A stretch of 32,643 nt of DNA from a virus (taxonomy: Duplodnaviria > Heunggongvirae > Uroviricota > Caudoviricetes): the IMG/VR virus record IMGVR_UViG_2740892229_000018, positions 1 through 32,643 of that record. One strand, written 5' to 3'. Within the stretch, counting starts at the first letter, position 1, and every line of letters starts with the position of its first letter. The position numbers and the translations under genes were made by a program. Under the pieces are notes generated by a model. The model did no database searches. It was given only the letters and a program-made list of their open reading frames with translations, and had not been told where the DNA came from. Shown piece by piece: positions 1-22,661 of this stretch.

Positions 1-933
1 ATGGACAACGACAAAATTGATCAACACAGCGACGAAATTGAAGTTGAGAGCGAAGAAAAAGAGCGCGGCAAAAAAATAGAAATAGATGAAGACCGACTCC
101 CCTCCCGGGCGATGGCAATTCATGAGCATATCCGCCAGGATGGTGAAAAAGAGCTGGAACGCGACGCAATGGCGCTACTGTGGTCAGCCATTGCGGCGGG
201 TCTGTCGATGGGCGCTTCGTTACTGGCAAAAGGGATATTTCATGTCGAACTGGAAGGTGTGCCGGGCAGCTTCTTGCTGGAGAATCTCGGTTATACCTTT
301 GGTTTTATTATCGTCATTATGGCCCGCCAGCAATTATTTACCGAAAATACCGTGACTGCGGTACTACCCGTCATGCAAAAACCGACAATGAGCAACGTCG
401 GCTTACTTATACGGTTATGGGGCGTCGTGCTGCTGGGTAATATTCTCGGGACAGGTATTGCGGCGTGGGCATTTGAATATATGCCTATCTTCAATGAAGA
501 AACTCGCGATGCATTTGTCAAAATCGGCATGGATGTGATGAAGAACACCCCCAGCGAGATGTTTGCCAACGCGATCATTTCCGGCTGGCTGATCGCCACT
601 ATGGTTTGGATGTTTCCTGCAGCGGGTGCGGCAAAGATTGTGGTGATTATATTGATGACCTGGCTTATTGCCCTGGGTGACACCACCCATATCGTGGTCG
701 GTTCTGTTGAAATCCTCTATCTGGTGTTTAACGGTACGCTGCACTGGAGCGATTTCATCTGGCCCTTCGCACTACCTACTTTAGCGGGGAACATCTGCGG
801 CGGCACCTTTATCTTCGCGTTAATGAGTCATGCACAGATTCGTAACGACATGAGCAATAAGCGTAAAGCAGAAGCACGCCAAAAAGCAGAACGTGCGGAA
901 AACATTAAGAAAAATTATAAAAACCCGGCATAA
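1..933 (+). CDS. yfdC: YfdC, formate/nitrite transporter (FNT) family inner membrane protein
   Basis: 310-aa ORF starting at window position 1; multi-pass hydrophobic protein matching my memory of E. coli YfdC, which sits immediately upstream of argW in K-12. Confidence 0.88.
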   Translation: MDNDKIDQHSDEIEVESEEKERGKKIEIDEDRLPSRAMAIHEHIRQDGEKELERDAMALLWSAIAAGLSMGASLLAKGIFHVELEGVPGSFLLENLGYTFGFIIVIMARQQLFTENTVTAVLPVMQKPTMSNVGLLIRLWGVVLLGNILGTGIAAWAFEYMPIFNEETRDAFVKIGMDVMKNTPSEMFANAIISGWLIATMVWMFPAAGAAKIVVIILMTWLIALGDTTHIVVGSVEILYLVFNGTLHWSDFIWPFALPTLAGNICGGTFIFALMSHAQIRNDMSNKRKAEARQKAERAENIKKNYKNPA

Positions 934-1008
934 ATGGCGAGGGTTTAAGCAATCGAGCGGCAGCGTACTTACCCCGCACTCCATTAGCGGGTATACTCAT
1001 GCCGCATT

Positions 1009-1083
1009 GTCCTCTTAGTTAAATGGATATAACGAGCCCCTCCTAAGGGCTAATTGCAGGTTCGATTCCTGCAGGGGACACCA
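1009..1083 (+). tRNA. argW: tRNA-Arg (anticodon CCU)
   Basis: 75-nt sequence GTCCTCTTAGTT...GCAGGGGACACCA read directly; anticodon loop CUCCUAA, T-arm GGTTCGATTCC, 3' CCA encoded. Confidence 0.92.
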
Positions 1084-1178
1084 TTTATCAGTTCGCTCCC
1101 ATCCGTACCAGTCCGCAAAATCCCCTGAATATCAAACCTTCTGTAGATGCACAGTTCGTAATGGTTCGCGTCAGATCG

Positions 1179-1208
1179 TTGACAGCCGCACTCCATGACG
1201 GGTAAAAA
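1179..1208 (+). promoter_or_regulatory. candidate sigma70 promoter for the integrase gene
   Basis: TTGACA at 1179-1184, 17-18 bp spacer, GTAAAA/TAAAAA at 1202-1208, about 40 bp upstream of the int ATG. Confidence 0.3.
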
Positions 1209-1244
1209 GTGGATAAAATAATTTTACCCACCGGATTTTTACCC

Positions 1245-2426
1245 ATGCTCACCGTTAAGCAGATTGAAGCAGCAAAGCCGAAAGAAAAACCATACCGCTT
1301 ACTCGATGGTAATGGCCTGTACCTTTATGTCCCTGTATCCGGAAAAAAGGTCTGGCAGCTTCGCTACAAGATTGACGGTAAGGAGAAAATCCTGACCGTC
1401 GGAAAATATCCGCTTATGACTTTGCAGGAGGCAAGGGATAAAGCATGGACTGCGAGGAAAGACATCTCGGTTGGCATCGATCCGGTAAAGGCGAAAAAGG
1501 CTTCGTCTAACAACAATTCCTTTAGCGCCATTTACAAGGAATGGTACGAGCACAAGAAGCAAGTCTGGTCAGTAGGCTATGCAAATGAACTTGCAAAAAT
1601 GTTTGATGACGACATTTTACCCATCATCGGCGGCCTTGAAATTCAGGATATTGAGCCGATGCAACTGTTGGAAGTAATCCGCAGATTTGAAGATCGCGGC
1701 GCAATGGAGCGAGCCAACAAAGCACGCAGAAGATGCGGCGAGGTTTTCCGTTACGCTATTGTCACTGGTAGGGCTAAATATAACCCGGCACCTGACCTTG
1801 CTGACGCCATGAAGGGATACCGCAAGAAGAACTTCCCGTTTCTTCCTGCAGACCAGATCCCGGCATTTAACAAAGCACTGGCAACATTTTCAGGAAGTAT
1901 CGTATCGCTCATTGCCACCAAGGTTTTACGCTATACAGCCCTAAGAACGAAAGAGCTTCGTTCCATGCTATGGAAGAACGTCGATTTTGAAAACAGGATT
2001 ATCACCATCGACGCCAGTGTGATGAAAGGACGCAAAATTCATGTGGTTCCTATGTCAGACCAGGTGATTGAACTTCTCACTACGCTAAGCTCAATCACTA
2101 AACCGGTATCAGAGTTTGTTTTTGCCGGGCGCAACGATAAGAAGAAGCCAATCTGCGAGAACGCGGTGCTACTTGTGATCAAACAAATCGGCTATGAGGG
2201 GCTGGAAAGCGGTCACGGATTCAGGCATGAATTCAGCACGATTATGAACGAGCACGAATGGCCTGCCGACGCCATTGAAGTGCAACTGGCACATGCCAAC
2301 GGCGGTTCTGTGCGTGGAATTTACAACCATGCTCAGTATCTCGATAAGCGCAGAGAAATGATGCAGTGGTGGGCGGACTGGATTGATGAAAAGGTGGAGC
2401 AACCAACATTGCTATATCTCAGATAG
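1245..2426 (+). CDS. intS: tyrosine integrase, P4/IntS type
   Basis: ORF beginning MLTVKQIEAAKPKEKPYRLLDGNGLY at ATG 1245 (the track ORF starts at an upstream GTG, 1209); matches my memory of K-12 IntS (CPS-53/KplE1); positioned directly after argW and transcribed away from it. Confidence 0.9.
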   Translation: MLTVKQIEAAKPKEKPYRLLDGNGLYLYVPVSGKKVWQLRYKIDGKEKILTVGKYPLMTLQEARDKAWTARKDISVGIDPVKAKKASSNNNSFSAIYKEWYEHKKQVWSVGYANELAKMFDDDILPIIGGLEIQDIEPMQLLEVIRRFEDRGAMERANKARRRCGEVFRYAIVTGRAKYNPAPDLADAMKGYRKKNFPFLPADQIPAFNKALATFSGSIVSLIATKVLRYTALRTKELRSMLWKNVDFENRIITIDASVMKGRKIHVVPMSDQVIELLTTLSSITKPVSEFVFAGRNDKKKPICENAVLLVIKQIGYEGLESGHGFRHEFSTIMNEHEWPADAIEVQLAHANGGSVRGIYNHAQYLDKRREMMQWWADWIDEKVEQPTLLYLR

Positions 2427-2472
2427 CACAAAGCCTTGCAATCCAGTGCAAAGCTTTGTGTGTCTCAGTTTT
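2427..2472 (+). terminator. hairpin immediately after the int stop codon (possible terminator)
   Basis: 13/14-bp stem cacaaagccttgca / tgcaaagctttgtg (2427-2460) with 6-nt loop; TTTT at 2469-2472 is 8 nt further on, so the U-tract is not ideal. Confidence 0.4.
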
Positions 2473-2577
2473 GTCTTATCAACCCTATTGATGCAATAAG
2501 ACAAAAAAAGGCATTAATGACACAAGTGAATAATTAGAAAATGTGGCCGCAACACTTAAGATGCGGCCTTCAATGCA

Positions 2578-4677
2578 TTAAAGAGGTGTTATGGTAAATG
2601 TTACATTTGTCTGGCTTGCACCAAGTGTTACTTCCAAATTCCCACCACTAACGCTGATAGAGGTTATCGAAATTCCAGAGCCACCATAGACAACCTGATT
2701 AGCGGTGTTTACAGAAAGCGTAGAACCATCATAGCTGAACGTAACCCCGTCAGCATAAGATTGATAGTTATTGACGCGTATTTTAAAAATCTCCCTATAA
2801 ACTGACGCGGCTCCTAAAAAACTAGGGAATGCGCCATTGATTTCTGTCAGTGGGATTTGGAAAGTTTTCCCAGGTCCAGAAAATCCCTTTTTGTGTTGGG
2901 ATACTCTGAATGTCTCATAGGAACCAGTTGACAGTAACTGCCCTCTATATGCTGATTCTTTATGAAATGCTTGTACTGACTCCGCATAATTTACGACACC
3001 TCTACCAACCCTTCCTGTGTCAATTTCTAATGTTGAACCAGTATCCACTAAAGATGCCGGGAAGTTAAATGTGGCACCATTCCAGAAGGTTATTCTGGGA
3101 ACGGTGATGTGGGTATTTACACCTGTAATTGTAAATAAGCGTTGGCGTTGTGTGCGTAGAGACAGGTTCAAAACAGCCGACGCTCCTCCGCTAGCCAGTA
3201 TCACTGCATTTGTAGTATCTATAGTGTCGTAGCAGTTGAAGGTCAGCGCTGCCGAACCAGCTACCATATTTATGTACGCGTTCGCTGACGGTGACGGACT
3301 CTCCGCACCAATATCACCAGCAACGTCACACTCTGAAAAATAATAAGATGAACCACCAGAAACACTACCTGCGTTATCGCATGCCGTTGATTGAAAGTTT
3401 ATGTACTGGCATCTTTCCATATGCCATCCATCTAACTCAGCGCCGGCCACATAGCAGCTGCTTATATGTAGACTTGTTGCTGCTTGGTTAACTGCTGCTG
3501 CTGGCGTCCCGCCTGTAGAGGTAAAGCGTGCTGCGTCATAAAAGACACCGTGAGATGTATTCTCAGAGAATCGGCATAAGGTAAGCCCACCTAACCAACC
3601 GCTTTTAACCCACAGACCATGTTTACAACCTCTGGTTCTCACTTTCTCAATGGAGTAGCCAACAACCTGCGGCATATAAATACCAACAGGTCGGTTGTCA
3701 GATGGCGCTAAATGACAGTCAATATATCCACCACTGAATGTCCAGTATCGGCAGATATCATTTCCGCCGATAAGGAAGACGCAGTTAACATCGCCTTCTA
3801 CGTAAGCTCCTTGCGTGGGAATGTATGCATCAAGTCCAGTAGTGGTAGTTGATGTTTTAACAATTGTAGATTCGCCGAGATTTACCGACCAATAGTCAGT
3901 AGCCTGCAATAAAACAGGTTGGTCTATAAGATAGCCACGACCTTTTTCGTCAGGTGTTTTAATCTTACCAAGAGAATCGAACATGTTCTGGAATGCAGCG
4001 GATGAGGAGGTTGCTCCAGACGGTAAAGAGCCATCATCCTGAACTTCAAAGGACACTGCGCCGAAGTCATCTACAGTTACATTTTCTTTATTTACCCGCT
4101 CCCAGTACCACATGGATGACACCACAGCGATTATGCCGCCATCATCGGATGGAATATTAGACATTCCAACTGTAGAGCGGGCAATAAATTCTCCACCACC
4201 TGTACGACCTCCCGAGTAGTAAGATGCCAGAAGAATTCTCTGACCTCCTACTTCTGGAACAATGGTTCGTAGTTCATCAAAAGAATCTACCTGACCGATT
4301 AACTTAAATCCATCAACGCCAGAAAGACGCTTCTCAAATTGGTCAGGGTCGTACTTCAACACATTAGGGAAATAGAACTGCTGCGCCCCATATGCATCGT
4401 ACACAGCCATAGAATGGCCTTGCCCGGTAACGAATTTGGCAATCTGTCCGTTATATACCGGATAACCAGCAGCGTTAATGATGATTGGTTGAGAAACAGG
4501 AACGTGAGAACCGTCTTCGTTCTCTACATAAACCTGAATCCGGTTTTCAGGATTTACCGGATCCGTGTCAATTTTACCGATATAAATTTCGCCATTGGCA
4601 ACTGCTTTAAAAGAACGCGCCATAGTGAAGAGTTGCGAAGGCATCGATACGATCACATTGGCTGTAATGTCTGTCAT
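2578..4677 (-). CDS. tailspike protein with P22 gp9-like N-terminal head-binding domain and a divergent receptor-binding domain
   Basis: 699 aa; N-terminus [29 protein letters not shown]...[10 protein letters not shown] matches the conserved P22 tailspike head-binding domain from memory; the remaining ~580 aa do not resemble the P22 sequence I recall; GGAG RBS 6 nt upstream. Confidence 0.85.
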
Positions 4678-4735
4678 TTAATTTGCTCCAGATACAAGGA
4701 ATCGCCGCAGCGTAGCTACGGTGAATTTTGGGCAT

Positions 4736-4758
4736 AAAAAAACCCAGCCGAAGCTGGG
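4736..4758 (-). terminator. rho-independent terminator between ant and the tailspike gene
   Basis: Minus-strand hairpin cccagc-ttcg-gctggg followed by TTTTTTT (A-run 4736-4742 on plus). Confidence 0.6.
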
Positions 4759-4777
4759 TCGTTGCGTTGGTTATCTG

Positions 4778-5707
4778 TCAGTAGTTATGTACTGAAGGAG
4801 GCAATTCTTTATTCTTAAGTCTCATCCATGCGGAAAGATTCGTTGGTCCGTCTGGCTCATTAATATCAACATCTCGTGTGTGGTTTATTAAAACGTCTCT
4901 CGCCATTCCGATAACATACGAGAACTCATGACCATAGTCGTAGCATCTGCCGGAATAGTTCGATTGAATTTGTTTTAATGCCGGATACAGTTCGCGGAAT
5001 AATGCCTGTGAGCGGTTGGCATAATCCCATAACCATACAAGGCTGTTTGCTTCTTTTGCAGAAAGCTCGTTGGTTTTCTTCTCTTGTTTGCCGATTAACT
5101 CGCCTTCAAGCGGAACGCGAGCTGCAAGTGACAGAGCTTCGGTAAACTGCTCCTCGCTGATTTCTTTGTATGAACACCCAAAATGGGATTTCAGTGATGA
5201 CCACATGGTGATCATCGCCTTAGCCTGTTTTTCTTTTGGCAGAGACTGACCGCGACTCATGACGAGTTGTTTAATGGCTTCCTGCTGTTCAGTGGTGATT
5301 TTACCCGGCAACGCCTTTTTAGCTTTGCGTGGGTTAACTACATGGCCTTTAGTCCAGTACTCGTATAGCACATCGTCACACTCTTCTTGATACTGGATTA
5401 CATTGTCGCGGATTTCAGGGCGGACTTTGTTAGGGCTGATGGTTTGCAGCCAGCCAGCAAGTTTGCGAAGTGCCAAACAAATAATCTCACGGCACTGTTC
5501 ATCACCAGGAAGCTGCATTGTGATTTTCACAATGGAGGTTTTAAACCGTTGCTTTATTTTCGTAAACTGTGAAGCCCAATCCATACCCATGCCTTCAACG
5601 ATAGGTTTCATTGGGGTGTACGGCTCACCGTTGTGATTGACGACATAAAGCTCTGCGCCGTGGAATGGCACGTTGATAGTAGATACCGCTGTTGCTATAC
5701 TTTTCAT
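4778..5707 (-). CDS. ant: antirepressor Ant (immI region)
   Basis: Sits directly downstream of arc on the same strand, as in P22 immI. ATG at 5707 ([12 protein letters not shown]...) preferred over the track's upstream TTG at 5773. Confidence 0.7.
5672..5700 (+). promoter_or_regulatory. Psar-like promoter antisense to the ant start
   Basis: TTGATA (5672-5677), exact 17-bp spacer, TATACT (5695-5700) on the plus strand; predicted start lies at about the ant start codon. Confidence 0.45.
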
Positions 5708-5775
5708 GTCAATATTTCCTAATCCGATTTGTTGATACCGAAGCCCTGACTGTTCCAGCAGTTGGGGCTTCAACT
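5706..5775 (+). ncRNA. sar: candidate sar-like antisense RNA covering the ant RBS and the arc-ant spacer
   Basis: Transcript from the Psar-like promoter would run about 70 nt to a 7-bp hairpin gaagccc(5740-5746)/gggcttc(5765-5771); matches the size and position of P22 sar RNA; the U-tract is weak. Confidence 0.4.
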
Positions 5776-5937
5776 TTACGCGCCAATGCGCCCTTCCTTC
5801 TTAAAGCTTTCCATTACTCTCTGATAAATCTCAGAGTTAACAGACCGACCATTCTCTTCCGCCACCTTGCGTACCAAATCCAATACTTCTTTAGGCCACC
5901 GCAAATTGAACTGCGGCATCTTGCTCATTCCTTTCAT
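5776..5937 (-). CDS. arc: Arc repressor (ribbon-helix-helix)
   Basis: 53-aa product [53 protein letters not shown], essentially the P22 Arc sequence as I remember it. Confidence 0.93.
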
Positions 5938-5952
5938 ATTCACCTCACAATA

Positions 5953-5971
5953 TAGGTTCACCGTGGACCTA
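5953..5971. promoter_or_regulatory. Mnt operator (O_mnt)
   Basis: Near-perfect dyad TAGGTTCACCGTGGACCTA, placed just downstream of the Pant -10 as in P22. Confidence 0.6.
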
Positions 5972-6000
5972 TTGAGAATATAGTAGAGTGCTTCTATCAT
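5972..6000 (+). promoter_or_regulatory. Pmnt-like promoter
   Basis: TTGAGA (5972-5977), 17-bp spacer, TATCAT (5995-6000), divergent from and overlapping Pant. Confidence 0.45.
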
Positions 6001-6001
6001 G
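5976..6001. promoter_or_regulatory. Arc operator
   Basis: gaatatagtagagtgcttctatcatg is the reverse complement of the P22 arc operator CATGATAGAAGCACTCTACTATATTC as I recall it; lies between the Pant -35 and -10. Confidence 0.7.
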
Positions 6002-6005
6002 TCAA
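5977..6005 (-). promoter_or_regulatory. Pant promoter
   Basis: Minus-strand TTGACA (6000-6005), 17-bp spacer containing the Arc operator, TATATT (5977-5982). Confidence 0.6.
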
Positions 6006-6027
6006 CACACTAACTTGGAGTGATGGC

Positions 6028-6279
6028 ATGGCTAGAGATGATCCGCACTTTAACTTCCGTATGCCTATGGAAGTAAGGGAGAAATTAAAATTCAGGGCGG
6101 AGGCGAATGGGAGATCAATGAACTCCGAGTTGTTACAAATCGTCCAAGATGCTCTATCAAAACCATCGCCTGTGACTGGATATCGTGACGATGCAGAACG
6201 ACTCGCTGATGAGCAGTCAGATCTTGTTAAGAAGATGGTGTTTGATACGCTGAAGGATTTGTACAAAAAAACCACCTGA
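6028..6279 (+). CDS. mnt: Mnt repressor
   Basis: 83-aa product MARDDPHFNFRMPMEVREKLKFRAEANGRSMNSELLQIVQDAL... near-identical to P22 Mnt from memory. Confidence 0.93.
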   Translation: MARDDPHFNFRMPMEVREKLKFRAEANGRSMNSELLQIVQDALSKPSPVTGYRDDAERLADEQSDLVKKMVFDTLKDLYKKTT

Positions 6280-6378
6280 CGGTGAGTTAATTTTTGCATT
6301 TACCTGGGCCATATTGACTACTTATAAAATGAGATCAATATTTAATCGCCCAATAACGGGTGTATGTTGAGGTATATC

Positions 6379-6558
6379 ATGGCGAAAAAACCAGGTGAAA
6401 ACACAGGGAAAAACGGCGGAATATACCAAGAAGTTGGCCCACGCGGCGGTAAGAAAGACAATTTTGCCACCGTCAAGGACAACGAAAGGCTTCCACCAAC
6501 AACAAAGCCAGGTCATGGCTGGGTATTGGATAAGCGAACTCCAGACAGCAAAAAGTAA
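6379..6558 (+). CDS. small conserved protein, possibly YjzC-like; function unknown
   Basis: 59 aa from ATG 6379 (GAGG 8 nt upstream; the track's earlier ATG at 6364 lacks an RBS). Motif KPGE..NGGIYQEVGPRGG...ERLPPTT..GHGWVL resembles the YjzC-like small-protein family as I recall it. Confidence 0.45.
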   Translation: MAKKPGENTGKNGGIYQEVGPRGGKKDNFATVKDNERLPPTTKPGHGWVLDKRTPDSKK

Positions 6559-6563
6559 TAATC

Positions 6564-6588
6564 AAGCCGGGTCACTCCGGCTTTTTGA
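6564..6588. terminator. hairpin with T-run between the convergent cargo genes
   Basis: agccgg(6565-6570)/ccggct(6577-6582) followed by TTTTT on the plus strand; overlaps the last codons of the minus-strand 121-aa gene. Confidence 0.45.
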
Positions 6589-6937
6589 TATGTCGCTCGC
6601 AGAACTCAACAAGCCTGCTCATTAAGTAGCAGTAAGTCTCGTTGGCTCTTCCTGGTTCAACATCAACACCTACCCTTGAGCAGATATCGAATGCCATGTG
6701 AGCGCACTCATGGGCAATAGTAGATAGTTTGCCATTGAACACGCCTATCACATGCAAAACACCATTCTCGCTACTCATTGTATGAGACGCTCCGTTGGCG
6801 TCCGAGTCATGCACGTCAACGCCAAGTTTTTGATGCAGGCGTTGCCATTCTGGAAAGTCTCTACAAAACACAATTGTACCGCTCTCAAAGAGCGGTACGA
6901 GCATCTTTGGTACGTTTCCAATGTTAACTTTTTTCAT
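6572..6937 (-). CDS. hypothetical 121-aa protein with HExxH motif (putative minimal zincin-like metallopeptidase)
   Basis: MKKVNIGN... contains H76-E77-C-A-H80 with E94/E100 downstream; divergently transcribed from the lipoprotein gene; sits where P22 carries sieA. Function inferred from the motif only. Confidence 0.5.
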   Translation of the reverse strand: MKKVNIGNVPKMLVPLFESGTIVFCRDFPEWQRLHQKLGVDVHDSDANGASHTMSSENGVLHVIGVFNGKLSTIAHECAHMAFDICSRVGVDVEPGRANETYCYLMSRLVEFCERHIKKPE

Positions 6938-6971
6938 GGTATCCTGCGCAAAACTAAGGAGAGTTAATTAT

Positions 6972-7457
6972 ATGAAAAAATCACTGTTAATTATCCCGCT
7001 TCTGCTGGCTGGGTGCGCAAAAGTAAGCGACTATCAGGCAAGTTGCGAGCAACGCTATCCAAAGCTTAGCGATATGGCTAATTGCCTTGATGCCAGCTTG
7101 AAGAACGACTCTCGCATGGCATCAGCACCAACACCTAAGCTGTATGTCCTTGCTGCGAAGATGCTCGGGCAAGGTGTCGATGAAGGCAAGATAAGTGACA
7201 CACAGGCAAGACTTGAACTTCAGAATCTTTATGTTCAATTACAAAGCCAAGAACAAGCACAACAAATAGCACAAAGCCAAGCATTCCAGCAGGCTTTATT
7301 GAATTATCAGGCTGTAAACACAATGCAAGCGATCGAGCAAAAAGCGCGCCAGCCTGTTATAACTCAACCTTACCCAACACGCGTTGACACATATACAAAC
7401 TGCAATTCAGGATTTGGAAACACGGTAACATGCAACAGTAGCAGTAATATCAGGTAG
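6972..7457 (+). CDS. putative lipoprotein with Gln-rich coiled-coil segment
   Basis: MKKSLLIIPLLLAGC has a signal peptide and lipobox (LAGC); AAGGAG RBS 8 nt upstream of ATG 6972; central segment QNLYVQLQSQEQAQQIAQSQAFQQALLNYQ. Confidence 0.65.
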   Translation: MKKSLLIIPLLLAGCAKVSDYQASCEQRYPKLSDMANCLDASLKNDSRMASAPTPKLYVLAAKMLGQGVDEGKISDTQARLELQNLYVQLQSQEQAQQIAQSQAFQQALLNYQAVNTMQAIEQKARQPVITQPYPTRVDTYTNCNSGFGNTVTCNSSSNIR

Positions 7458-7471
7458 TTATATCTTATCTT

Positions 7472-9352
7472 TTATTGCTGTTCTGCTGTAATTTGGCTTG
7501 AAAGTATAGGGCGTATCGCATTTGCAGCATTATTTAGCGCTCTTTCATAGGCTGGTGTTCCTGCTTTGGTGTTTGCCAGACGTAAGAGAGCATTCCTTGC
7601 TGCTTTGGACTCATACAAGCGCATCATTGCACCGAAACCAGCCTCAAGCCCCATTGATACGCCAAGAGTCGCAGTTGCGCCAATCGTCCTTATCCTGTTG
7701 GCTTGCGATTGCCCCGTCTGAGTTACTACATTTGCGGTGTCTGACCTTGCTGTTTGCTGTAGAACTTCATGAAGAGCATCAAGCTCTTTCATGTGCTTTC
7801 CTGAAAAAATAGTGTTGTAAATTTCACCGCCTGACTGAGATTTCAGCTTATTAACTTCAGTGATGAACTTGGCTGGAGAGTCACCGGCCTTTTCCGCTAT
7901 TTTGCTGACGTAAGCTGCACGCATAGCATCTTTCCCTTTATCATCCAGTGCGCTCCAGATTCGTTTCACGTCAGATGGTTTTCTGCTTAATACAACAGTA
8001 TTTATAAGTTCAGGACTGGCTTCACTGCTTGCCTTGTTGAGCTTGTTAGCAATGTTTTTATTAAGCACCTTATTATAAACGTTTGCATAATCGGAATTTG
8101 CTTTAAGGTATTTTGCTGCGTCTGACGCACCGAGGTTTTTTGCAACTGCGTTACGAAGGTCTTTTGACATTGCATTCTCTACCATATTGGTAGCTGCTTT
8201 TGCCTGGTTGGGGAAGACCATAGCATCTCCCTGAACATTAGATCTAAATGCTGTTCTGTGCTGACGCAAGAGATCAAACGTAACATCCAAATCAGTTGCA
8301 GGGTTTGCTAATTCTTCACGTAGGTTACGCAAGGATGTAAGCAGGCTTTGATTGGCTGAAGTCCCAAGCCGTTCCTGTCTTGCGATCGCTGTATTCAGAG
8401 CATTCATGGTATTTGTGGTATCAACTGCGGCATTACCCATTTTATTGGTGACGTCATTGATAACAGCGCCAGCGGCATCCTTCCGCCCCCTTAACGTGGT
8501 GGTAAGAGATTTCACCACATCATCAGGGTTGTACTCACCAAAACGGTCAAAATAATTACTTACCAGCTTACTACGCGTTGCATATTGCTCCGCTCGCTTT
8601 GAGCCTGTCCCGAGCAAAGCCCCCTCGGCATCCTGAGTTAGGCCGCGAGTGAAAGCATTTTTCGGCGGGATAACATCAGATGTCATTGGTGTCACGCCCA
8701 TCGATTCTGATGTGGCAATTTTCTTCGCCACTTCTGGCGCAATATCACCTTTTATAGCCGTTATTCCACGCCCTATTCCCTTTGCTGCTGCGGAAAGAAC
8801 ACCCTGAGTGGCAAGGTTAACTCCGGCATTTTTAGCTGCATTTTGTGCGAAATCGCCTTTCTGATTTGCGGCCTCTGCCAGTGATCCAATAGCCATGCTT
8901 CCTGCCGTTCCAACTCCTGGAACTAAATACCCACCAATTGTTTCACCGGCTTGCGCGTAGGGGTCTGTCGGTCGATCGACAGGGCGATAAACATCATCCA
9001 AAACCTTGGGGCCACCAAGCCCCTGACTGATTGCATTAATCAGACTTGCGCCACCCTGCAATACGTCAAATGGTATGTTTACCAGACCACGACCAGCCTG
9101 TTCTGCAATTTGCCCTGCACTTTGACCACCAGTGAGCCAATCGCCAGCTTGTTGCATCAATGATGGTTCTTCTTTCTGCTGCTGAGGTGGAGGGTATGCT
9201 GCATAAAACTGATCTCTTGCTTCAGCCCATTTGTCACCAGCCTTAGGGGCAACAACCTCATCAAAATATTGCGCTTGAGCCTGTGCTTTCTGTTCTTCAG
9301 TTAACGCCTGATACTGTGGAGAAGCGATAACATCTTTCCATGCTTTAGCCAT
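7472..9352 (-). CDS. DNA-ejection (injection) protein, P22 gp16-like
   Basis: 626 aa, last of three consecutive ejection-protein genes between tail needle and immI, as in P22; size close to P22 gp16. Confidence 0.7.
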
Positions 9353-10701
9353 TAATCACCCCATAAAGACGAGAAACCGGACTTATTGCTGTCGCTTCCT
9401 GATTTTCGCTCACTAACATATGTGTCATAACCTGATGAACTATATCCCATTGATTCAGCCTCCCTTGCTGCAACCTTTTGAAATACAGAATATTGCGATC
9501 GGATTTCAGATAACTGTTTTCTGACGACCTCTTCAGGCTGTGTTATATCGAGTTTCGCGATAAGGTTTTCCAGTTTTTGTCCTTCAGCATTGGAGAGGCT
9601 ACCCATACCTCGCATAGTCTGCACGTTCTGGACAAACGCACCCGACTTTAATTCTTCTATCGCATTACGGTTTGCAAGCCCTTCAGCACTTGTGAAGCCA
9701 TCTATATTTCTTCCTTCGAAGCGACCGATACCTTCAAGCTCCTTCTTACCAAGCAAAGAATCTATTTTCTCTATCCCTCGCTCACCAGTAATCAACGCAT
9801 TGTTGTAATTATTGTTGCCATCAAGCCATCTCTTAGCCTGAGACATTCTGGCTGACGTTGCAGCTTTACCGGTTAGCGGATCAATTCCCGTCGCTGCTAT
9901 CTGTGAGTTAAGAGACAAAACATCCATATCCTGAAGTTGTCCTGCTCTTTCAAGGGCCGCCTGTGACTGCTTAAACACATACTTGTCGTGATTCAGTCTT
10001 GCCATTTGAGCCTTATAGGAAAGATCCTGCCCCCTAATAGCCCTCGCATTCGTCATGTCATTATTGCGAATGGTTTCGTTAATTCTTTGCTGCTCCTGCT
10101 GGCGACCAACCATCTTGTCCTGAACAGCAAACGCCTTTTCTGGTCCAAGCGCACCGAGAGACATAGTAGTCAGCATGTGTGATAGCTGCTCTGGATTCTG
10201 GATACCTGTCTGAATCATCCAGTCAGCATTAGCACCAACGCGATTTAACCTGTCCTTGTTATCAGTAATGAATTTACTGTAGGCTTCCGGTCCCTGAGAA
10301 AGAGCGACGTTAGCCCTCATGGCTAAATCGCCCATATCGTTGCGTTGCTGCTCATTAAGACCGGAAAACGCCTGTTGTGCCTGTGCAACAAACGCTGGAT
10401 TTTCCTGGGCAAACTTAAATAGTCCCGATGGATCACCAGAAGCCCATGCATCAGCGTGAACCTTATTGAACGCACTAATAGCTTTCTGTTGCTGTTCCTG
10501 ATTGTAAATATCAGCAACTCCAGCCAGACCACGTAACGCGGTCAGACCAACGTTATTTGCACCTGAGCGAGCCAGTTCATTGTTTTCGCGGATCAGACCA
10601 AGCGTTGCGTTAATGTCGCTTGCCTTTGGCGCATTCTCATTTTGCGTACCGATGCCAGCCAGAAAACCACCAGAATTAATACCCTGTTGCCACGTAGCCA
10701 T
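9352..10701 (-). CDS. DNA-ejection protein, P22 gp20-like
   Basis: 449 aa; assigned by position and size in the P22 ejection-protein block. Confidence 0.65.
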
Positions 10702-10711
10702 TGATTACCCC

Positions 10712-11404
10712 TTAAAACAACGAGCCAAGCAGACCAAGACCGCCGCCGATCGCAGCCCCCCACGGAGTTGATGAACCAATTAATTTCGCAAGTCCGGCCC
10801 CAGCAATAGCACCAGACGCACCTCCGCCAATAGCAGATTGCATTGCTGATGGTCTGTTGGCATTTGCCGCTGCAAGAGCCGCACTTTGCTGCGAAATCTG
10901 ACTCATGTTGTTGGCATATGTCTGCCCTGCGTTTGCCTGACCTTGCAGAGCACCAAGCCCAACGTTTGCCAGATTCTGGTAGTTGTTCATCTGACCAGAC
11001 AGCCACTGCTGACCAAGCGTTGGTGCGATTGTTGCTAACTGATTACTGGTTGCGGTGGAACCCAATCCACCTGTTGCTTCCGCTGCAGCCAGACTCTGAT
11101 AGCGAGCCTGACCTGCAAGGTCTTTATACTGCTGAGAGTTGTAATACTGGTTAAGTGCCTGACCTTGCCCCTCCAGAGACGATAAGTTTTCGAGGCTGCC
11201 GACATACTTATCAGCCAGAGGAGTAAACGGCTTCAGGTTATTCATGATGGTGTTGAACTGCTGATTTTGCAGGTCTGCGGCATACTTCTGGGCTTCTGCT
11301 GCATACTTTGCGCTTTTATCAGAACTGCCACCTTTCCCACCCTTTTCAGGGCAATAAGGTTCCTCGCCGCGCAGTTTTCTGCCCAGCTTAAATGCATATA
11401 ACAT
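10712..11404 (-). CDS. DNA-ejection protein, P22 gp7-like
   Basis: 230 aa, Gly/Ala/Gln-rich with hydrophobic C-terminus; position and size fit P22 gp7. Confidence 0.65.
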   Translation of the reverse strand: MLYAFKLGRKLRGEEPYCPEKGGKGGSSDKSAKYAAEAQKYAADLQNQQFNTIMNNLKPFTPLADKYVGSLENLSSLEGQGQALNQYYNSQQYKDLAGQARYQSLAAAEATGGLGSTATSNQLATIAPTLGQQWLSGQMNNYQNLANVGLGALQGQANAGQTYANNMSQISQQSAALAAANANRPSAMQSAIGGGASGAIAGAGLAKLIGSSTPWGAAIGGGLGLLGSLF

Positions 11405-11406
11405 GG

Positions 11407-11862
11407 CTATCTCCCGTGATTCAGGAAGTCGATTAGTTCTTCGCGTGTGGCGCTGTAAAAAGTCACGTCATCAACGCCTTTGAAGTATTTCTTGATGGTT
11501 CCTACACGCTTAAGGCCAATCATTGCGCAGTACATCTGACCGTGGCGGAATTTGCGTGCAGCGAACGATGTTACGCACTGAACGGTGGTGTTAGTCAGAA
11601 TGTATCTCCAGAACGCCAGCCCGATTTCCTTGCTGAAGCCGCGAATCTCTGGCAGGTACATGGCGTGGCAATCGAATGTCAGCGGCTGAATCTCCTGATA
11701 GTAAACAATGCCGCCAAACTGACCGTGCACGTTAACCTCAAAGTAACGGCATTCAGGCTTGTAGTCGTATCCATCACCGTTGTTGCTTCCGGCAATAATG
11801 TCAGGGTGATTTCCGACTGCTTCGATCAGGTCGATGTTTCGCGTTGGTTTGAACTGAATCAT
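11407..11862 (-). CDS. P22 gp14-like virion protein (by synteny)
   Basis: 151-aa ORF between the tail-needle and gp7-like genes; assignment by position only. Confidence 0.45.
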   Translation of the reverse strand: MIQFKPTRNIDLIEAVGNHPDIIAGSNNGDGYDYKPECRYFEVNVHGQFGGIVYYQEIQPLTFDCHAMYLPEIRGFSKEIGLAFWRYILTNTTVQCVTSFAARKFRHGQMYCAMIGLKRVGTIKKYFKGVDDVTFYSATREELIDFLNHGR

Positions 11863-12710
11863 TACTGCTCCGCGATTATCTTGATGGTTGTGGCAGTAAA
11901 CGCCGCACCATTTGACTGAATGGTTAACGTACTGCCATTTGTGGCAAGAAAGCCGTCTTTATCCACGCTGAAGAACGTAGCTAACAGGATGTTATCGGTT
12001 GTTGTCGCCGCATTACGACTGCTGACCAACGTGTCAGGAACAGAGCCGGAAAAGGTTAGCTGCATTGATCTGTTGGCGGTTCCGCTGGGCCACGTCCCGA
12101 CAATAGACAGCTTGAAGAACAAAGTTTTGTTCTCGTTGAACACAACCATCTTGTTGTTAACGGTGTCGAAGAATGGTGCCAACGAGCCTGATGACGGCGT
12201 GAGCGTTTTCAGCAGGCTAACAAGGTTGGTCGGCGCTGTCGGAATGGTTACTGATACGCCAGAGTAAACAACCTCTGACTTCTTGCGAGTAGTGGCATAC
12301 TCCAGAGCATCAATGCGCGACTCATGGTCTGAAACCTGCGATTCCAGCGACTGAACTCTGGTATCAAGCGACGCAATATCGCTTTCATTCTGAGCTATTC
12401 GTGTTTCATGTTCCTGAAGAGTTGATTCTGCCTGGCTGATTCGCTCCTCATGATTAACAAGCGTTGCTTCCGCAGCAGAAATTCGCTGCTCATGGTCAGC
12501 GAGAATCACATCCTGCTCATCGTTCCTGACTTGTGCGTCATAAGCGCCCTGTCCGGCCTCGTTGGCCTTGTTAGCCACATTACCAACATCAGTACCCTGT
12601 GCGATAACGTAAAGCAGATACGACTGCGAGAAGATATTGCGTGGAAGGACTGATGTGTCTAGCCGCGTAGCTTGGATGATTACCGGCACATTGAGATTCG
12701 AATCCGCCAT
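11862..12710 (-). CDS. tail needle (P22 gp26-like) with C-terminal knob domain
   Basis: 282 aa; heptad coiled-coil repeats ([36 protein letters not shown]) then a ~140-aa C-terminal domain, as in Sf6/HK620-type needles. Confidence 0.8.
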
Positions 12711-14128
12711 TACTCAATCCTTATCTGGCAGCCAGACAGAGTGACTGGTGACTTCGTAATAACGCGCAATTTGAAGCCGACATTTTTCCTGATGCGCCCT
12801 ACTCGCTTCCACAAAACACGCTTGTCGTAAACGAACGGTTCATTCTGCTCAATCATCTGCTCACGCCCGTAATTGATGCCGTCAGTGGTTGCAGAGAGAA
12901 AAAGGCGGTCGGCGTACTGCGCAACGCCAGTTGACGATTCAACCTCAAGGTCGAAAACTCTGGCGTTATCTGCTTTGAAGAGTGGGGTAAACAGCAGATG
13001 TTCCTGTTGCTTGTCGTACTGGCTGCTGATATCGAACTGCAATTTCCCGGTAACAGATTCCAGCTTATCGCCGCACGTTATCTGATTGCCTTCGTAAATG
13101 AAGTCGATAGCGCGGTACACATCGTCATACAGGCCTGTTTTCAGCACACACCATTGCGGACCATTGGCGCTTGAAGATGCGTCGTACACGAGAACATGGC
13201 GCGGAAGATGGATAATCAGCAACTCATGCGCATCAAACCGCAACGATTCCATCACGCCATCAGCCAGTTCATCAGCAGTGTAGGAGCGAAGAATTTTCTC
13301 AATGCTCGCGCTGGCGATTGGTGACACCTGACCGGAGCCGATGATATACACAGACGGCGCACCTGTTGCCGGATTGCTGATGAAAGCATAGGAATCAGCA
13401 AACGGCGTTTTGCAGTAAGTTCCGGCGATGCCTTTTTGCACCATCAGCGATGGCTGCGCGACATACAAAGCAGCACCAACGGTAGTTGCGCCTGTCAGGG
13501 AGAAATATTCAATCGTCGATGAACCAAAGCAGACGATGAAGTCTCGCCATGTTCCGATGCCGATAATACCGTCAGGCTGAGACTCGGCACGATATTGTGC
13601 ACTGTATCGGTCAGGGTGCGATTCGTCTTCAAGGTCAGTGATAAACCATGAATCAGTTCCGTCTTTTGACCACGCATAACGCCCACGTAAGCGCGTAATG
13701 TCGCGAACTGAACCTAACTCGTACTGTGTGAATCCGCTGTCTGTAGGCCAGTTTGAGACGGTTTTAACCGTGCCATCATAGCGATACTCGACCAGTTGAC
13801 CATTAACGCCTACAGCCTGAGATGTCCGACCATGCGCCATTGATACACGACCACTTCCGGCAACATCACCGACTTCGCTTTCGCCCTTATACAGCTTGCC
13901 CCCACACACGCGATATACAGCACTCTGCGCCATGTTGTACTCGACGCCGCGCGATATACCGTTCACATCAGAACGTTTGGCAATGCCCGGGAATGAGCGA
14001 AGATATCCGCTGCTGTTGAGGATTTCTTTGGGTGTAGCCAACATATTCACTGGCAGATAGTCGATATAGTCGGCGTTTCGGAAGTCTTTGCCGACACCTT
14101 TCATAAGCGGAAGTTGCTGAATCGGCAT
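12710..14128 (-). CDS. tail hub / head-completion protein, P22 gp10-like
   Basis: 472 aa, same length as P22 gp10 as I recall, located between the gp4-like and needle genes. Confidence 0.7.
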
Positions 14129-14136
14129 TTATTCAC

Positions 14137-14619
14137 CTATGCGTTTGGTATATCGCCATCAATCAGAGGGAGATCGCCTGGATAATATCGGTCAGATGTA
14201 AACACGTCATATTTATTACCCTGTCCTACAGGAAAATCTCCACGTCGTCGCATTGAAGGAACAATCAGAGTGTCGGTCATCAAGGCATCATATGAGCGTT
14301 GGGCGTTACTGAGAACTTGCGGAGTTGGTTCAAGGCTGTAATCAGATAGCATTCTCAGCAATAACTGATAGCCTACTGCGTGTTTGTATTTTCTTGGAAG
14401 ACCTGACTCATCATCTGGTAATGGCTGCTCATCTCCAGTTGCGAAAGCGTAACCAATGTCGCCGGGGTTAATCATCCACTCGGACATCATATCTTCCAGA
14501 TCATTTACACCATCTTCAATTGATTGCGGCTCAACATCAGTCAGCGATGCATTAGAAGCAATAGCAAACTTACGAAGCGCAAAAAGGACGATCTCACCCT
14601 TTGTCAGTACTGTTGCCAT
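14137..14619 (-). CDS. tail accessory factor, P22 gp4-like
   Basis: 160-aa ORF downstream of the coat gene; position and size fit gp4. Confidence 0.65.
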   Translation of the reverse strand: MATVLTKGEIVLFALRKFAIASNASLTDVEPQSIEDGVNDLEDMMSEWMINPGDIGYAFATGDEQPLPDDESGLPRKYKHAVGYQLLLRMLSDYSLEPTPQVLSNAQRSYDALMTDTLIVPSMRRRGDFPVGQGNKYDVFTSDRYYPGDLPLIDGDIPNA

Positions 14620-14779
14620 TGTCTGCCGCCTTACGACCTCGCTTACTGGTCGGTTTCAATTCATCAACTGAGGCAACAAAGCCCAACTTTTCGAAGAACT
14701 GGAAGTCTTTTTCTGCGATAACGGCCTGTACATGCCCGGATTCGTTATCTGCGGCAAGGAATACACTCATGCGATCCAT
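14594..14779 (-). CDS. hypothetical small protein between coat and gp4-like genes
   Basis: 61-aa ORF whose stop overlaps the gp4-like start; no recognised motif. Confidence 0.35.
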   Translation of the reverse strand: MDRMSVFLAADNESGHVQAVIAEKDFQFFEKLGFVASVDELKPTSKRGRKAADNGNSTDKG

Positions 14780-14780
14780 A

Positions 14781-14807
14781 TTGTTTCCTTAAAACATAAA
14801 AGGGGCG
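14781..14807 (-). terminator. rho-independent terminator/attenuator after the coat gene
   Basis: Minus-strand hairpin ggggc-ttac-gcccc followed by TTTTATGTTTT, directly after the coat stop (14822). Confidence 0.55.
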
Positions 14808-14821
14808 TAAGCCCCTTGTTA

Positions 14822-16099
14822 TTACGGATTACCGAAGAACTGACCGCCCATGTGAGGGTTAAAGCACACATATGCAGGCAGTAAGTCAAAGCGCATTTTT
14901 TGCACGTTGGCATCGCCATCTGCGTATTTATGTACGCGGATGGAGAAACCTTCATATGTTGCAACAGCAGAATCAATACTGTGCAGTTTCGGCAGTGGGA
15001 TAGAGCCAAGTCCACAGAAGAACTTGTTATAGAACAGGTTTGGCTTCATTGTCTGGCTAGCAGTGCCTACTACAGATACGGCATCACCTGCCGCTACCTG
15101 ACGACTTACAGAGTTGTACTGCGGGTTTGTAGTGTCATAAATCGGAACACCAGAAAGCGTAACCGTCACATCGCCACTGCTGTCTGAATTAGCATCAGCA
15201 GTAACCGTTGCAGTGAAGCTAATTGGTGTGGCTCCGTTATACAACGCCTGTTTGGTCTGCTGTTGCAGCCAGTAGGTATTGGTGAATTTGACCTGATCAC
15301 CAGCTTTCAGAAAACCTGTAACGCTGGCTGTCGCTCCGGTCAATGTTACAGTGAACTGGTATGAGTCTTTAACTGCGTTATAGGTAACAGTTGGCTGTGT
15401 TTTGACTGTCAGTGTTCCGCCAAATGCCCCCTGCGTACGAGAGGCAAGCCCATTAGACATCAGTGCGCGAATGCCGCCAAAATTGGTTGGGATCTGTGCG
15501 TTCTCCCATGCAGTACGAACCAATTGATCTGAAGCATGCAAACCAGTCTGCGCATCAGCAAGTCGCTGTGCAGACCATGGATCCATTACAGCATAGTTTT
15601 CACCTTCATTAACGCCGAGGTCTTTCAGGAAAGATGCCGTCTGCGCAACATCAGACCATTTGGTGATTGGCGTATTGGGGCTACCAAGTGACAACGCACC
15701 GTTATTCATCATGAAGTGAGCAAGCTCTGTTTCAAGGTCGGTAACGATTCGCTGGCGAACCGGCGCGAGAATTTCTTCCAGCTGGTTAAGCTTGATCGCT
15801 TCCTCCAGTTGCTGATATTCAACAGCAACAGTGATGTAGTTACCTACACGCCCCGTAGCTTTACCTGAGATCAGGTTGTTTTTATTTTGCCCTGAAATAT
15901 CACCAGTGGGAGTACGGAGTGATGAGAATTGATGCGGACGTTTAAAGCTAACGCTATCGCCAGTGCTGGAGTTGATTTCACCTGCCAGCAACTGACGGTC
16001 TACGGTTTTCGCCAGAACTAAATCTGACATAAAACCCGGAAGGAATTTTTTCAGAACGATTTGACTGACGTTACTGTCGAGATTGTTATTGTTAGGCAT
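14822..16099 (-). CDS. major capsid (coat) protein, Sf6-type
   Basis: 425 aa between scaffold and gp4-like genes; sequence unlike the P22 coat I recall, size consistent with the Sf6 coat group. Confidence 0.85.
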   Translation of the reverse strand: MPNNNNLDSNVSQIVLKKFLPGFMSDLVLAKTVDRQLLAGEINSSTGDSVSFKRPHQFSSLRTPTGDISGQNKNNLISGKATGRVGNYITVAVEYQQLEEAIKLNQLEEILAPVRQRIVTDLETELAHFMMNNGALSLGSPNTPITKWSDVAQTASFLKDLGVNEGENYAVMDPWSAQRLADAQTGLHASDQLVRTAWENAQIPTNFGGIRALMSNGLASRTQGAFGGTLTVKTQPTVTYNAVKDSYQFTVTLTGATASVTGFLKAGDQVKFTNTYWLQQQTKQALYNGATPISFTATVTADANSDSSGDVTVTLSGVPIYDTTNPQYNSVSRQVAAGDAVSVVGTASQTMKPNLFYNKFFCGLGSIPLPKLHSIDSAVATYEGFSIRVHKYADGDANVQKMRFDLLPAYVCFNPHMGGQFFGNP

Positions 16100-16110
16100 C
16101 TATCTTTTCC

Positions 16111-16995
16111 TTATTCGATTTTTGCGCCGGGGCATAATTTGTTGAATTCGTCTTGTTTCGCATCAGCACCGCCACCACGTACTTCCGGCTCTGGCTTGAT
16201 GGCTTTCTTTGGTTTTGGAGCAAGGCTTACCTGTTTGCTAATCTGCCCCAAGAGGAATGCTGCGCGAATTGGATCTGTCTCAGCGGCTACACGCTGGCGT
16301 AATTGCTGGCTCTTACCTAAGCCATAGGCGAGTAGTTCAGAGCCTTCGTCTGCACAGTGAATGATGATTTCCTGCTGAATTGGTGGTAGCTCACTAAGAA
16401 CAATGGCTTCCATTTCCTGATAATCTTTCACAGGAAGTTTGGCTGCCCGTTGTTTATGCGCTTCTACCCTTTGCTGGAAACGCTGTTGGTATTCCTGTTG
16501 CTGACGTAGTTTTTGTTGCTGCTGCTGTTCGACACGGCCTTTTTTCTCATGCCAATCAGTCAATGCCTGTTCAAACGCCTGTTCGTCATAATCACACGAC
16601 TCAAGAGTCGGTTTTGGTGGAATAGCGTCTGGTTGTGGTTGCTGATGTTCCGCTGGCTTGGCTAATGCTTCCTCAAGCTGGCGGCGCAACTCACGGTTTT
16701 CTTTCTGTGTTTCTTTGAAGCCTTTGCGAAGATCTTTCACCCATTGCGGTGCAGGTTGCCCGTCAATGTGATCATCATCGTCAGCGTTAAGCTGAATTTC
16801 TTCATCACCAATACGCAAGGCGTAATCTTCTGGTGTCTCTTCGGTTTTTTCAGGCTCAGTTTCCACCTCTTTACCGTTGTCATCCTGGCTTTCATTCTCA
16901 GGCTGTGACTCTGTTTGGATGATGGTTTCTTCTGCATTTTCCTGTGTTTCAGACAGGTCAATAACCTGACCGTCGATGATCAGTTCGTTTTCCAT
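16111..16995 (-). CDS. scaffolding protein
   Basis: 294 aa, highly acidic and Gln/Glu-rich with a helical C-terminus, between portal and coat. Confidence 0.7.
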   Translation of the reverse strand: MENELIIDGQVIDLSETQENAEETIIQTESQPENESQDDNGKEVETEPEKTEETPEDYALRIGDEEIQLNADDDDHIDGQPAPQWVKDLRKGFKETQKENRELRRQLEEALAKPAEHQQPQPDAIPPKPTLESCDYDEQAFEQALTDWHEKKGRVEQQQQQKLRQQQEYQQRFQQRVEAHKQRAAKLPVKDYQEMEAIVLSELPPIQQEIIIHCADEGSELLAYGLGKSQQLRQRVAAETDPIRAAFLLGQISKQVSLAPKPKKAIKPEPEVRGGGADAKQDEFNKLCPGAKIE

Positions 16996-17008
16996 TGATT
17001 ACTCCTGG

Positions 17009-19135: not shown

Positions 19136-19137
19136 GT

Positions 19138-20550
19138 TTACCAACCGGAGGATGAGGGAACGTATATTTCTGTTTGTTCGCGGGCCAATGCCGGGCAATG
19201 CATACACATCATCAACGCATCAGCCAGGTTAGGAGATGGAATACCGAGCTTCTGCTTCATTTCGACCTTAGTCATTAGCTCAAGCTTCCCGTTGTTATTG
19301 AATTTGCGCTGAATCTGCGTCAGTTCTGCAAACAGCTTCTCCAGCATCTTCTCGCCTATCACTTCTTTGTCGAAACTCAGCATGTCGTCGGGGTCTGCAT
19401 ACTCACCGTGGACAACCGCCCGATATGTCAGATACAGCCTGTCAGCCAGCGCGTAATAGAATTGCGCTCGCTTATTGCGGAATACATCGCCAATAGTGCG
19501 AACGTTGTCACCCTGTACGACTTCATCAGCCCATGCTCCGGCCTGATACGGCGCATCTTCATCGAATGGCGATTCGCTACCCTTGAACATCGTGGCGGTG
19601 ATTTTCTTGCCGGAGAACGCTTCCGTTGTCTGTCTGCGTAGCCCGGCACCAACACCATCACCATCCCACAGGTAGTGGTCAGCGCCGTCTTCAATCGCCA
19701 GCGAAGTAGCCCAGTCAGCACCATCGTTGATGTCCATCAGCAGACCTTCGGCAATGCGCTTAACTACCGAACCGTGGCGCGATGCGTAACCTTTAGCATC
19801 TGGCCCTGTATCTGACGGGTCATGCGCAGAGACAACAGCGCCTTTCGCTTTCCATCCGAGTTTCTTGTGCGCATCGGTTGCGGCTTCAAGCCATTCACGT
19901 TTGATGATTGCCATATCACTTGCGCTTACTGGCTCACCAAGCCAGATGTGACGATACAATGTCGGATTTCTGCGTTTGCACTCTTCCATCTCCAGACGGA
20001 GAACTTCAGGAAAGTGCGGGTTGTCGGTGTAGTTCACCGTCAGCAGGCAAATATCATCGGGAGGATTTACAACGAATCGCTGATAGGTATCGTCGAGGAT
20101 GTTTTTCGGGTTGAAGCTCACCCATATTTCGGAAAATGGCTTGCGGATGGTTGGTATCAGGATATCCCATGATTCCTTCGTTACCGCTTCCGCTTCCTCC
20201 ACCCAGCAGATATCAATGCCTTCGAGCGATTTAATCTTCGTCGGGTTGTTTTTGATGCCGTAGAACATGAACTCAGCATTCGTTCCGAGATGACGAATCA
20301 TTGAACGCTGAATTTCAAACTCAGCCGAATACCCTTCCCGCTCTATGGTGTCTTCAAGCAACCGGATTACCGAATCGCTGATACTGTTTTGCAGCTCACG
20401 AGCGCAAAGTATGCGCACAGGCTGCCGACGCGCCGCTTCAACAAGCAGCCTCGCAATTGCCCATGACTTACCGCTACCTCGACCGCCTTTGGCAACTTTG
20501 TAGCGATGCGCCTCAATGAACGGTTCAAAGATAGGATTAATCGAGGTCAT
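19138..20550 (-). CDS. terminase large subunit
   Basis: 470 aa with Walker A VAKGGRGSGKSWA near the N-terminus; start overlaps the TerS stop (ATGA). Confidence 0.9.
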   Translation of the reverse strand: MTSINPIFEPFIEAHRYKVAKGGRGSGKSWAIARLLVEAARRQPVRILCARELQNSISDSVIRLLEDTIEREGYSAEFEIQRSMIRHLGTNAEFMFYGIKNNPTKIKSLEGIDICWVEEAEAVTKESWDILIPTIRKPFSEIWVSFNPKNILDDTYQRFVVNPPDDICLLTVNYTDNPHFPEVLRLEMEECKRRNPTLYRHIWLGEPVSASDMAIIKREWLEAATDAHKKLGWKAKGAVVSAHDPSDTGPDAKGYASRHGSVVKRIAEGLLMDINDGADWATSLAIEDGADHYLWDGDGVGAGLRRQTTEAFSGKKITATMFKGSESPFDEDAPYQAGAWADEVVQGDNVRTIGDVFRNKRAQFYYALADRLYLTYRAVVHGEYADPDDMLSFDKEVIGEKMLEKLFAELTQIQRKFNNNGKLELMTKVEMKQKLGIPSPNLADALMMCMHCPALAREQTEIYVPSSSGW

Positions 20551-20987: not shown

Positions 20988-20989
20988 GT

Positions 20990-21244: not shown

Positions 21245-21335
21245 TTATCCGTTAAAAGGGATATCAGTTAAGTTATCCCGTGTAGGGTATAAGCCATTAT
21301 CAAAGCCACTCTGTAGGGAATGGCTTTTGTAATAA

Positions 21336-22518: not shown

Positions 22519-22661
22519 AGCGTCTTTACCTTTTAGAAAGTGAGCCTGTCTCACAGAAAAGCCGCCCGAGAGAGGTCGCCACCTATAACGGCATTTCTCA
22601 GGCTCGCTTACTGAAAGGCTCTCGTTAATATGCGCGTGAGATGCGCTGTGAAATTCAGATA

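Follow-up and report, generated by a model that had tools for sequence, protein, structure and literature searches.

The tailspikes of P22-like phages (Sf6 gp14, P22 gp9, HK620 gp9 and that of CUS-3) share one plan, consisting of an N-terminal anchor, a β-helix and a C-terminal domain, and are encoded in one place, behind ant, where the late operon ends. Their P22-type head-binding domain docks the spike onto the gp4/gp10 tail hub, and carboxylates on consecutive rungs are typical of β-helix glycosidases such as the P22, Sf6 and HK620 spikes and the GH28 enzymes. In E. coli, the spikes of Lederbergvirus prophages serve as predictors of the host O-serogroup, and cross-genus transfer of a receptor-binding domain has been documented (PMC10408124). 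Here we analyze the tailspike gene in a 32,643-nucleotide stretch of caudoviral DNA (IMG/VR record IMGVR_UViG_2740892229_000018, positions 1 to 32,643; the whole stretch is referred to below as the window). The gene is an intact component of a P22-like (Lederbergvirus-type) prophage at the argW site of E. coli, and we think it likely that its product is an O-antigen-specific, receptor-destroying trimeric spike that acts as an endoglycosidase. An ordinary example, it confirms the established picture in which phages trade receptor-binding domains as modules.

The N-terminal anchor is readily identified. The Pfam Head_binding family PF09008 spans residues 1–113 end to end (expect value (E) 4.2e-64; bit score 214, with the cut-off at 24), and a search of PDB sequences aligned residues 1–116 with Sf6 gp14 (7sg7; E 3.7e-64) and residues 1–117 with P22 gp9 (8tvr/2xc1; E 2e-49 to 4e-48), with no significant alignment to the full-length chains of either protein past residue ~117. 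Over the first 113 residues the ungapped identity is 90.3% to Sf6 gp14 and 73.5% to P22 gp9, and the HK620 and CUS-3 tailspikes are 87–91% identical to the window protein over residues 1 to ~125, which by sequence places the anchor in the Sf6/CUS-3/HK620 subtype rather than with P22 proper. A preliminary description of the window, made from its letters alone, had recognized a P22 gp9-type domain in the first ~115 residues, as these matches bear out, and had considered the remaining ~580 residues (window 2578-4350, corresponding to residues ~110–699, the non-P22 portion of the reading frame) to be unlike P22. The latter holds, with no P22, Sf6, HK620 or CUS-3 counterpart found for these ~585 residues; of them, however, residues ~118–232 form a neck and are not foreign. 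The anchor portion of our AlphaFold2 model is of poor quality, likely because the underlying alignment mixes unrelated anchors.

A precomputed match to PF27114 (Phage_tail_beta) exists for the neck of this exact protein and of most of its relatives. The assignment is indirectly backed by a profile search of the PDB, in which residues 113–262 match WceF, Depo32 and CBA120 TSP2. The neck aligns with WceF (6tgf) at E 3e-23 in a single-sequence search and 1e-25 in a profile search, with Depo32 (7lzj/7vz3) at E 2e-18, and with CBA120 TSP2 (5w6p/6w4q) at E 3e-14 to 3e-15; CBA120 TSP4 is likewise a sequence relative. WceF is a biofilm-glycan enzyme of the bacterium Pantoea stewartii and Depo32 is the K2 capsule depolymerase of a Klebsiella phage, and both have this neck in common with the tailspike, whereas their helix cores are unrelated to it in sequence. 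The neck between anchor and helix is a conserved, widely shared module.

Beyond the neck, the protein is predicted to fold as a right-handed parallel β-helix, as the preliminary description had expected, with an AlphaFold2 predicted local distance difference test score of ~90 across residues 130–540; as a prediction, this is the receptor-binding fold of the P22-like tailspikes. Among the top 60 structural neighbors of the model are Acinetobacter phage AS12 gp42 (score 34.5), Belisarius gp86 (32.4), CBA120 TSP2 (31.5), AlgE4 (29.4), Depo32 (29.1) and WceF (27.9), with the HK620 tailspike at rank 49 (22.8); the P22 and Sf6 spikes were not found among these 60. A viral structure library returned tailspikes and exopolysaccharide depolymerases exclusively, at 10–35% identity. 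AS12 gp42 (6eu4) and CBA120 TSP2 share just 15–18% identity with the tailspike, their helix cores being undetectable by sequence, and their anchors and host glycans are unlike those of the window protein. In a tblastn search of 50,697 phage records, the body had no match in P22, Sf6, HK620 or CUS-3, which align only at residues 1 to ~130, as do Sf101 and IME10, and the PDB profile search likewise gave no match to the bodies of the first four. Neither Pectate_lyase_3 (PF12708) nor Beta_helix (PF13229) matched at E ≤ 0.1, while other head-binding spikes do have these families; the likeness of the modeled body to β-helices of the pectate lyase superfamily is structural only.

The tailspike matches exactly RefSeq WP_052080874.1 ("phage tailspike protein [Escherichia coli]", assembly GCA_000752895.1), and the 90% cluster that holds it has 41 members, all from E. 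coli. It is otherwise rare. The protein was covered to at least 80% by none of the 50,697 phage records (tblastn) and the gene by none of 5,426 complete E. coli genomes, although 1,085 of the latter have the anchor, so that full-length near-identity to an already characterized tailspike, which would have contradicted the preliminary description, was not encountered. The body alone was found in none of the 5,426 genomes by megablast, blastn yielding only three distant partial matches. Its family is small, with 15 representatives among 1.84 billion proteins, and the IMG/VR viral contigs hold a single relative (67% identity), which adds nothing on specificity; its contig (L009) is siphovirus-like and includes gtr genes. 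Among isolated phages, the nearest body relatives are the receptor-binding proteins of HK2 (WYA83916.1) and pSb-1 (Gamaleyavirus, Schitoviridae), with 36–37% identity over residues 112–661; both are virulent N4-like phages with a gp66-type anchor and are too divergent for specificity to be transferred. A literature search found no paper on phage HK2 and no specificity data for either receptor-binding protein.

Conservation within the body, scored over 27 relatives with identities down to ~32%, points to a possible active site. The best-conserved stretch comprises residues 361–450. D252, R369, H376, D381, R384, Y409, Y425, D434, Y445, E459 and Y483 are 100% conserved, position 372 (E372) is acidic in all relatives, and D484 is conserved in 93% of them. 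R384, Y409, D434, E459 and D484 are spaced by exactly 25 residues, the length of one helix rung, and D434, E459 and D484 each lie at or just past the end of a long strand on successive rungs of the model. By analogy with β-helix glycosidases, this polar ladder is likely to line the substrate groove, and D434, E459 and D484 may be the catalytic carboxylates.

The β-helix body, we consider, probably recognizes and cleaves a sugar of the host surface. In the mechanism that we favor, the head-binding domain would anchor the spike, a homotrimer as in other tailspikes, to the gp4/gp10 tail hub; the β-helix would bind a repeating host surface polysaccharide, most likely O-antigen, and its endoglycosidase cleavage would let the virion descend to the outer membrane. 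The case for O-antigen as the receptor comes from the O-antigen-modifying genes that lie directly behind the spike genes of body relatives, namely a GT2 glycosyltransferase (L002 and L007), gtrA/gtrB/gtrC (L005 and L009) and an Acyl_transf_3 acetylase (L006). In the E. coli genome GCA_051412095.1 there are two prophages that differ in type, one siphovirus-like at argW with gtrABC (L005, 8001-10160) and one with a T7_gp14 Pfam match and the acetylase gene (L006, 8001-10370), whose spikes have unrelated anchors and 81%-identical bodies, which fits a body matched to the surface glycan of that host.

Several observations weigh against this reading. The window cassette itself is devoid of an O-antigen-modifying gene, so that the argument from context is borrowed from relatives. 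A Pfam search returned only PF09008, with no glycoside hydrolase, lyase or β-helix family, and no PDB chain was matched past residue ~262 by profile search. The model is that of a monomer, built from an alignment of 31 relatives, and the trimer is inferred; the putative catalytic assignment derives from conservation and periodicity. A full-text literature search for GCA_000752895/CCPP01 gave no serogroup for the source strain, and the supplementary tables of the E. coli receptor-binding protein and serogroup study (PMC10408124) hold neither this protein nor pSb-1. With no copy of the body in the 5,426 complete E. coli genomes, these gave no lysogens from which to deduce the serogroup.

The strongest alternative, which we nevertheless regard as unlikely, is that O-antigen is not the substrate and that the body instead depolymerizes capsule or exopolysaccharide, namely a group 1/4 K-antigen or colanic acid. 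The neck is common to the capsule and exopolysaccharide enzymes Depo32 and WceF, Acinetobacter and Klebsiella phages supply several capsule depolymerases among the top structural neighbors, and CUS-3 provides the precedent of a P22-like coliphage with a capsule-specific spike. The best PHROG match (PHROG 8280, E 5e-112) is even annotated as a "tail spike protein with colonic acid degradation activity", but the PHROG matches reach the anchor and neck only, and the colanic acid label is confined to that part of the protein. That the body binds its glycan and is not a hydrolase but purely adhesive, or else a lyase, an esterase or a deacetylase, seems to us very improbable, as the carboxylates D434, E459 and D484 occupy consecutive rungs in the manner of β-helix glycosidases and no SGNH or esterase domain was found with Pfam or PHROG. 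Least credible of all is that the prophage is defective and the gene a relic from which no functional spike is made any longer: the window stops short of the far end of the prophage and many argW-linked P22-like elements of E. coli are decayed (CPS-53 of K-12, for example), but the reading frame is full length with a ribosome-binding site (GGAG, 10 nucleotides 5' of the ATG), the virion genes tested are all intact, with Pfam models matched over essentially their whole length, the protein occurs at ≥90% identity as 41 sequence variants on dozens of E. coli contigs, and the amino acids of the helix core are kept across relatives with only ~55–70% DNA identity.

The way in which the putatively O-antigen-directed body may have been acquired can be followed by comparison with the closest complete genome, E. 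coli 2013C-4991 (O80:H2, sequence type ST301; PMC8537712), which has a P22-like prophage at the same argW site. Its tailspike (WP_249926767.1; cluster P0006) has 699 residues, as in the window, is 63% identical overall to the window protein and has a body of the same family, but carries a type 2 rather than a type 1 C-terminal domain, and a GT2 glycosyltransferase gene that the window lacks lies between the spike gene and intS. Nucleotides 1–543 of the two tailspike genes (residues 1–181) are free of mismatches; the first mismatch falls at nucleotide 544 (window 4134, codon 182), and mismatches are dense thereafter, with nucleotide identities of 42–78%. Some 5 kb 5' of the spike are near-identical (99.3% over window 4031-9172, and 100% in 60-nucleotide bins over 4161-5900), and similarity returns at window 1-2399 (99.1%), from the last sense codon of intS. 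Taken together, the upstream identity to nucleotide 543 and the similarity regained at 2399 delimit a variable cassette that spans the helix, the C-terminal domain and the intergenic stretch (Table 1). At its downstream end, the similarity of intS to both 2013C-4991 and L007 stops precisely at their stop codon, and the cassette junction has replaced that codon, so that the window IntS is extended by eight residues (EKVE/QPTLLYLR; window 2400-2426). The receptor-binding cassette would thus be swapped at a conserved neck stretch and at the end of intS.

The boundary at residue ~115 that the preliminary description proposed holds for most E. coli spikes, with DNA similarity ending at gene nucleotide ~335–350 in most of the 1,085 genomes that have the anchor, but not against 2013C-4991, where the junction lies at codon 181/182. 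The former is thus the common population-level junction and the latter a second one within the subgroup that shares the neck. We also considered whether the window carries a cassette in an otherwise identical prophage, and this is ruled out: the two prophages are mosaic relatives with different head genes. Near-identity is confined to the 4031-9172 segment, the host/intS flank and parts of the early region; megablast found no match in the 2013C-4991 prophage (L004) over the coat, portal and terminase genes within window 9173-24000, and the segment from gp7 to gp10 (window 10687-14134) is 92% identical. The differences outside the cassette read as ordinary lambdoid mosaicism.

The body is itself a mosaic. 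Sliding identity over the alignment resolves independent blocks, with the front of the helix (residues ~181–432) set apart from its rear and the C-terminal domain (residues ~433–699). Window-type fronts occur with type 1 rears (the window, P0001 and P0005) and with type 2 rears (P0003, P0004 and P0016), and 2013C-4991-type fronts with type 2 rears (P0006 and P0011) and with a type 1 rear (P0007); front and rear therefore assort independently, all four combinations being found in nature. The clearest case is the natural chimera L007 (8001-10109; P0003), which is 98% window-like up to gene nucleotide ~1297 and, from nucleotide 1298, 100% 2013C-4991-like as far as intS, the GT2 gene included. Its crossover lies where the body is most conserved and the parents share 75–78% nucleotide identity. 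The preliminary description had taken the body as the determinant of specificity, an interpretation that is supported, except that the body is not one indivisible unit, as recombinants break near codon 432.

Different phage types combine related bodies, ~36–84% identical, with N-terminal anchors of at least four kinds: the P22-type head-binding domain (PF09008); Tail_spike_N (PF18668), in the siphovirus-like prophage L005, which likewise sits at argW, and in the IMG/VR contig (L009); the "MTVSTVVDHNDYVGNG" type, in the second prophage type with the T7_gp14 match (L006); and a long gp66-like anchor in the N4-like Gamaleyavirus phages HK2 and pSb-1. In our favored mechanism, the cassette would be further shuffled internally near codon 432 and its bodies distributed over these four anchor kinds. 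A more speculative proposal, which we put forward as doubtful, is that shuffling within the helix, beyond the swapping of whole domains, generates new glycan specificities. If true, nature would have provided in this body family a series of chimeras from which the half of the helix that sets specificity could be read, possibly for O-serogroups of E. coli against which no phage enzyme is known. Natural chimeras of this kind offer a cheap route to the part of the helix that determines specificity. Typing, diagnostics, engineered pyocins and the design of phage host range all make use of tailspike bodies as ready glycan binders and depolymerases with serogroup specificity. A family with no characterized member, and with no solved structure that a sequence search can detect, may bring a further specificity to this toolbox.

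Table 1. Features of the tailspike locus and its surroundings (window coordinates).
Feature	Position	Strand	Basis or remark
tRNA-Arg(CCT) argW	1009-1083	+	ARAGORN; attachment end of prophage (1009..2426)
intS	1245-2426	+	Annotation of matching genomes; C-terminal extension of 8 residues
Variable cassette: helix, C-terminal domain and intergenic stretch to last sense codon of intS	2400..4134	-	Comparison with 2013C-4991
GGCCGCA..TGCGGCC hairpin between convergent tailspike and intS genes	2545..2568	.	Read from sequence; uncalled by terminator scan; 10-nucleotide loop
Tailspike gene	2578..4677	-	699 residues, ATG start; single uninterrupted open reading frame (list of open reading frames)
C-terminal β-sandwich, residues 541–699, type 1, ending ..NVTFTITPL	2581..3057	-	Alternates with type 2 in relatives
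Predicted right-handed parallel β-helix, residues ~226–540	3058..4002	-	AlphaFold2
Conserved polar ladder R384-Y409-D434-E459-D484, 25-residue period	3226..3528	-	Candidate substrate groove/catalytic row (inferred)
Approximate internal crossover, codon ~432	3379..3384	-	Natural chimera P0003/L007
Neck module, residues ~118–232; small β domain and helix capping the β-helix	3982..4326	-	Precomputed PF27114 Phage_tail_beta
Upstream recombination junction, codon 181/182 (..SDDGG/IIAVV..)	4134..4135	-	Mismatch pattern against 2013C-4991
Head-binding (virion anchor) domain, residues 1–113	4339..4677	-	Pfam PF09008
Terminator-like hairpin between ant and tailspike genes	4741..4760	-	GACCCAGC-TTCG-GCTGGGTT then TTTTT (scan)
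ant	4778-5707	-	Pfam P22_AR_N/C, precomputed on identical locus L003
arc	5776-5937	-	Pfam Arc, precomputed on identical locus L003
mnt	6028-6279	+	Pfam Repressor_Mnt, precomputed on identical locus L003

The surroundings of the gene are those of a P22-like prophage. The host flank is that of E. coli, with yfdC, argW and intS, and ~150 bp (window 2427-2577) that contain no O-antigen-modifying gene separate the tailspike gene from intS. On its 5' side lies an immI-type region (4778..6279) with ant, arc and mnt, followed by a P22-type virion module that comprises gp16, gp20, gp7, the needle, gp10, gp4, coat, portal and terminase, in which Pfam identified P22_Tail-4, Phage_stabilise, an Sf6-type needle knob, P22_gp7 and Inj_translocase. 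The tailspike gene thus occupies the position usual in P22-like phages, at the end of the virion module and 3' of immI, with genes for its tail-hub partners gp4 and gp10 present in the window. Plus-strand open reading frames of 66–132 residues within the tailspike coding region were regarded as chance occurrences.

The tail needle gene (window 11865-12710, minus strand) encodes an Sf6-type knob (PF16532, E 6e-116), unlike the tip of the P22 needle. Two further open reading frames lie between immI and gp16: one on the minus strand (window 6572-6937) encodes a protein of 121 residues, and the other, on the plus strand (window 6921-7457), encodes a putative lipoprotein of 178 residues with a signal peptide ending in ..LLAGC, which could be a superinfection-exclusion or moron gene.
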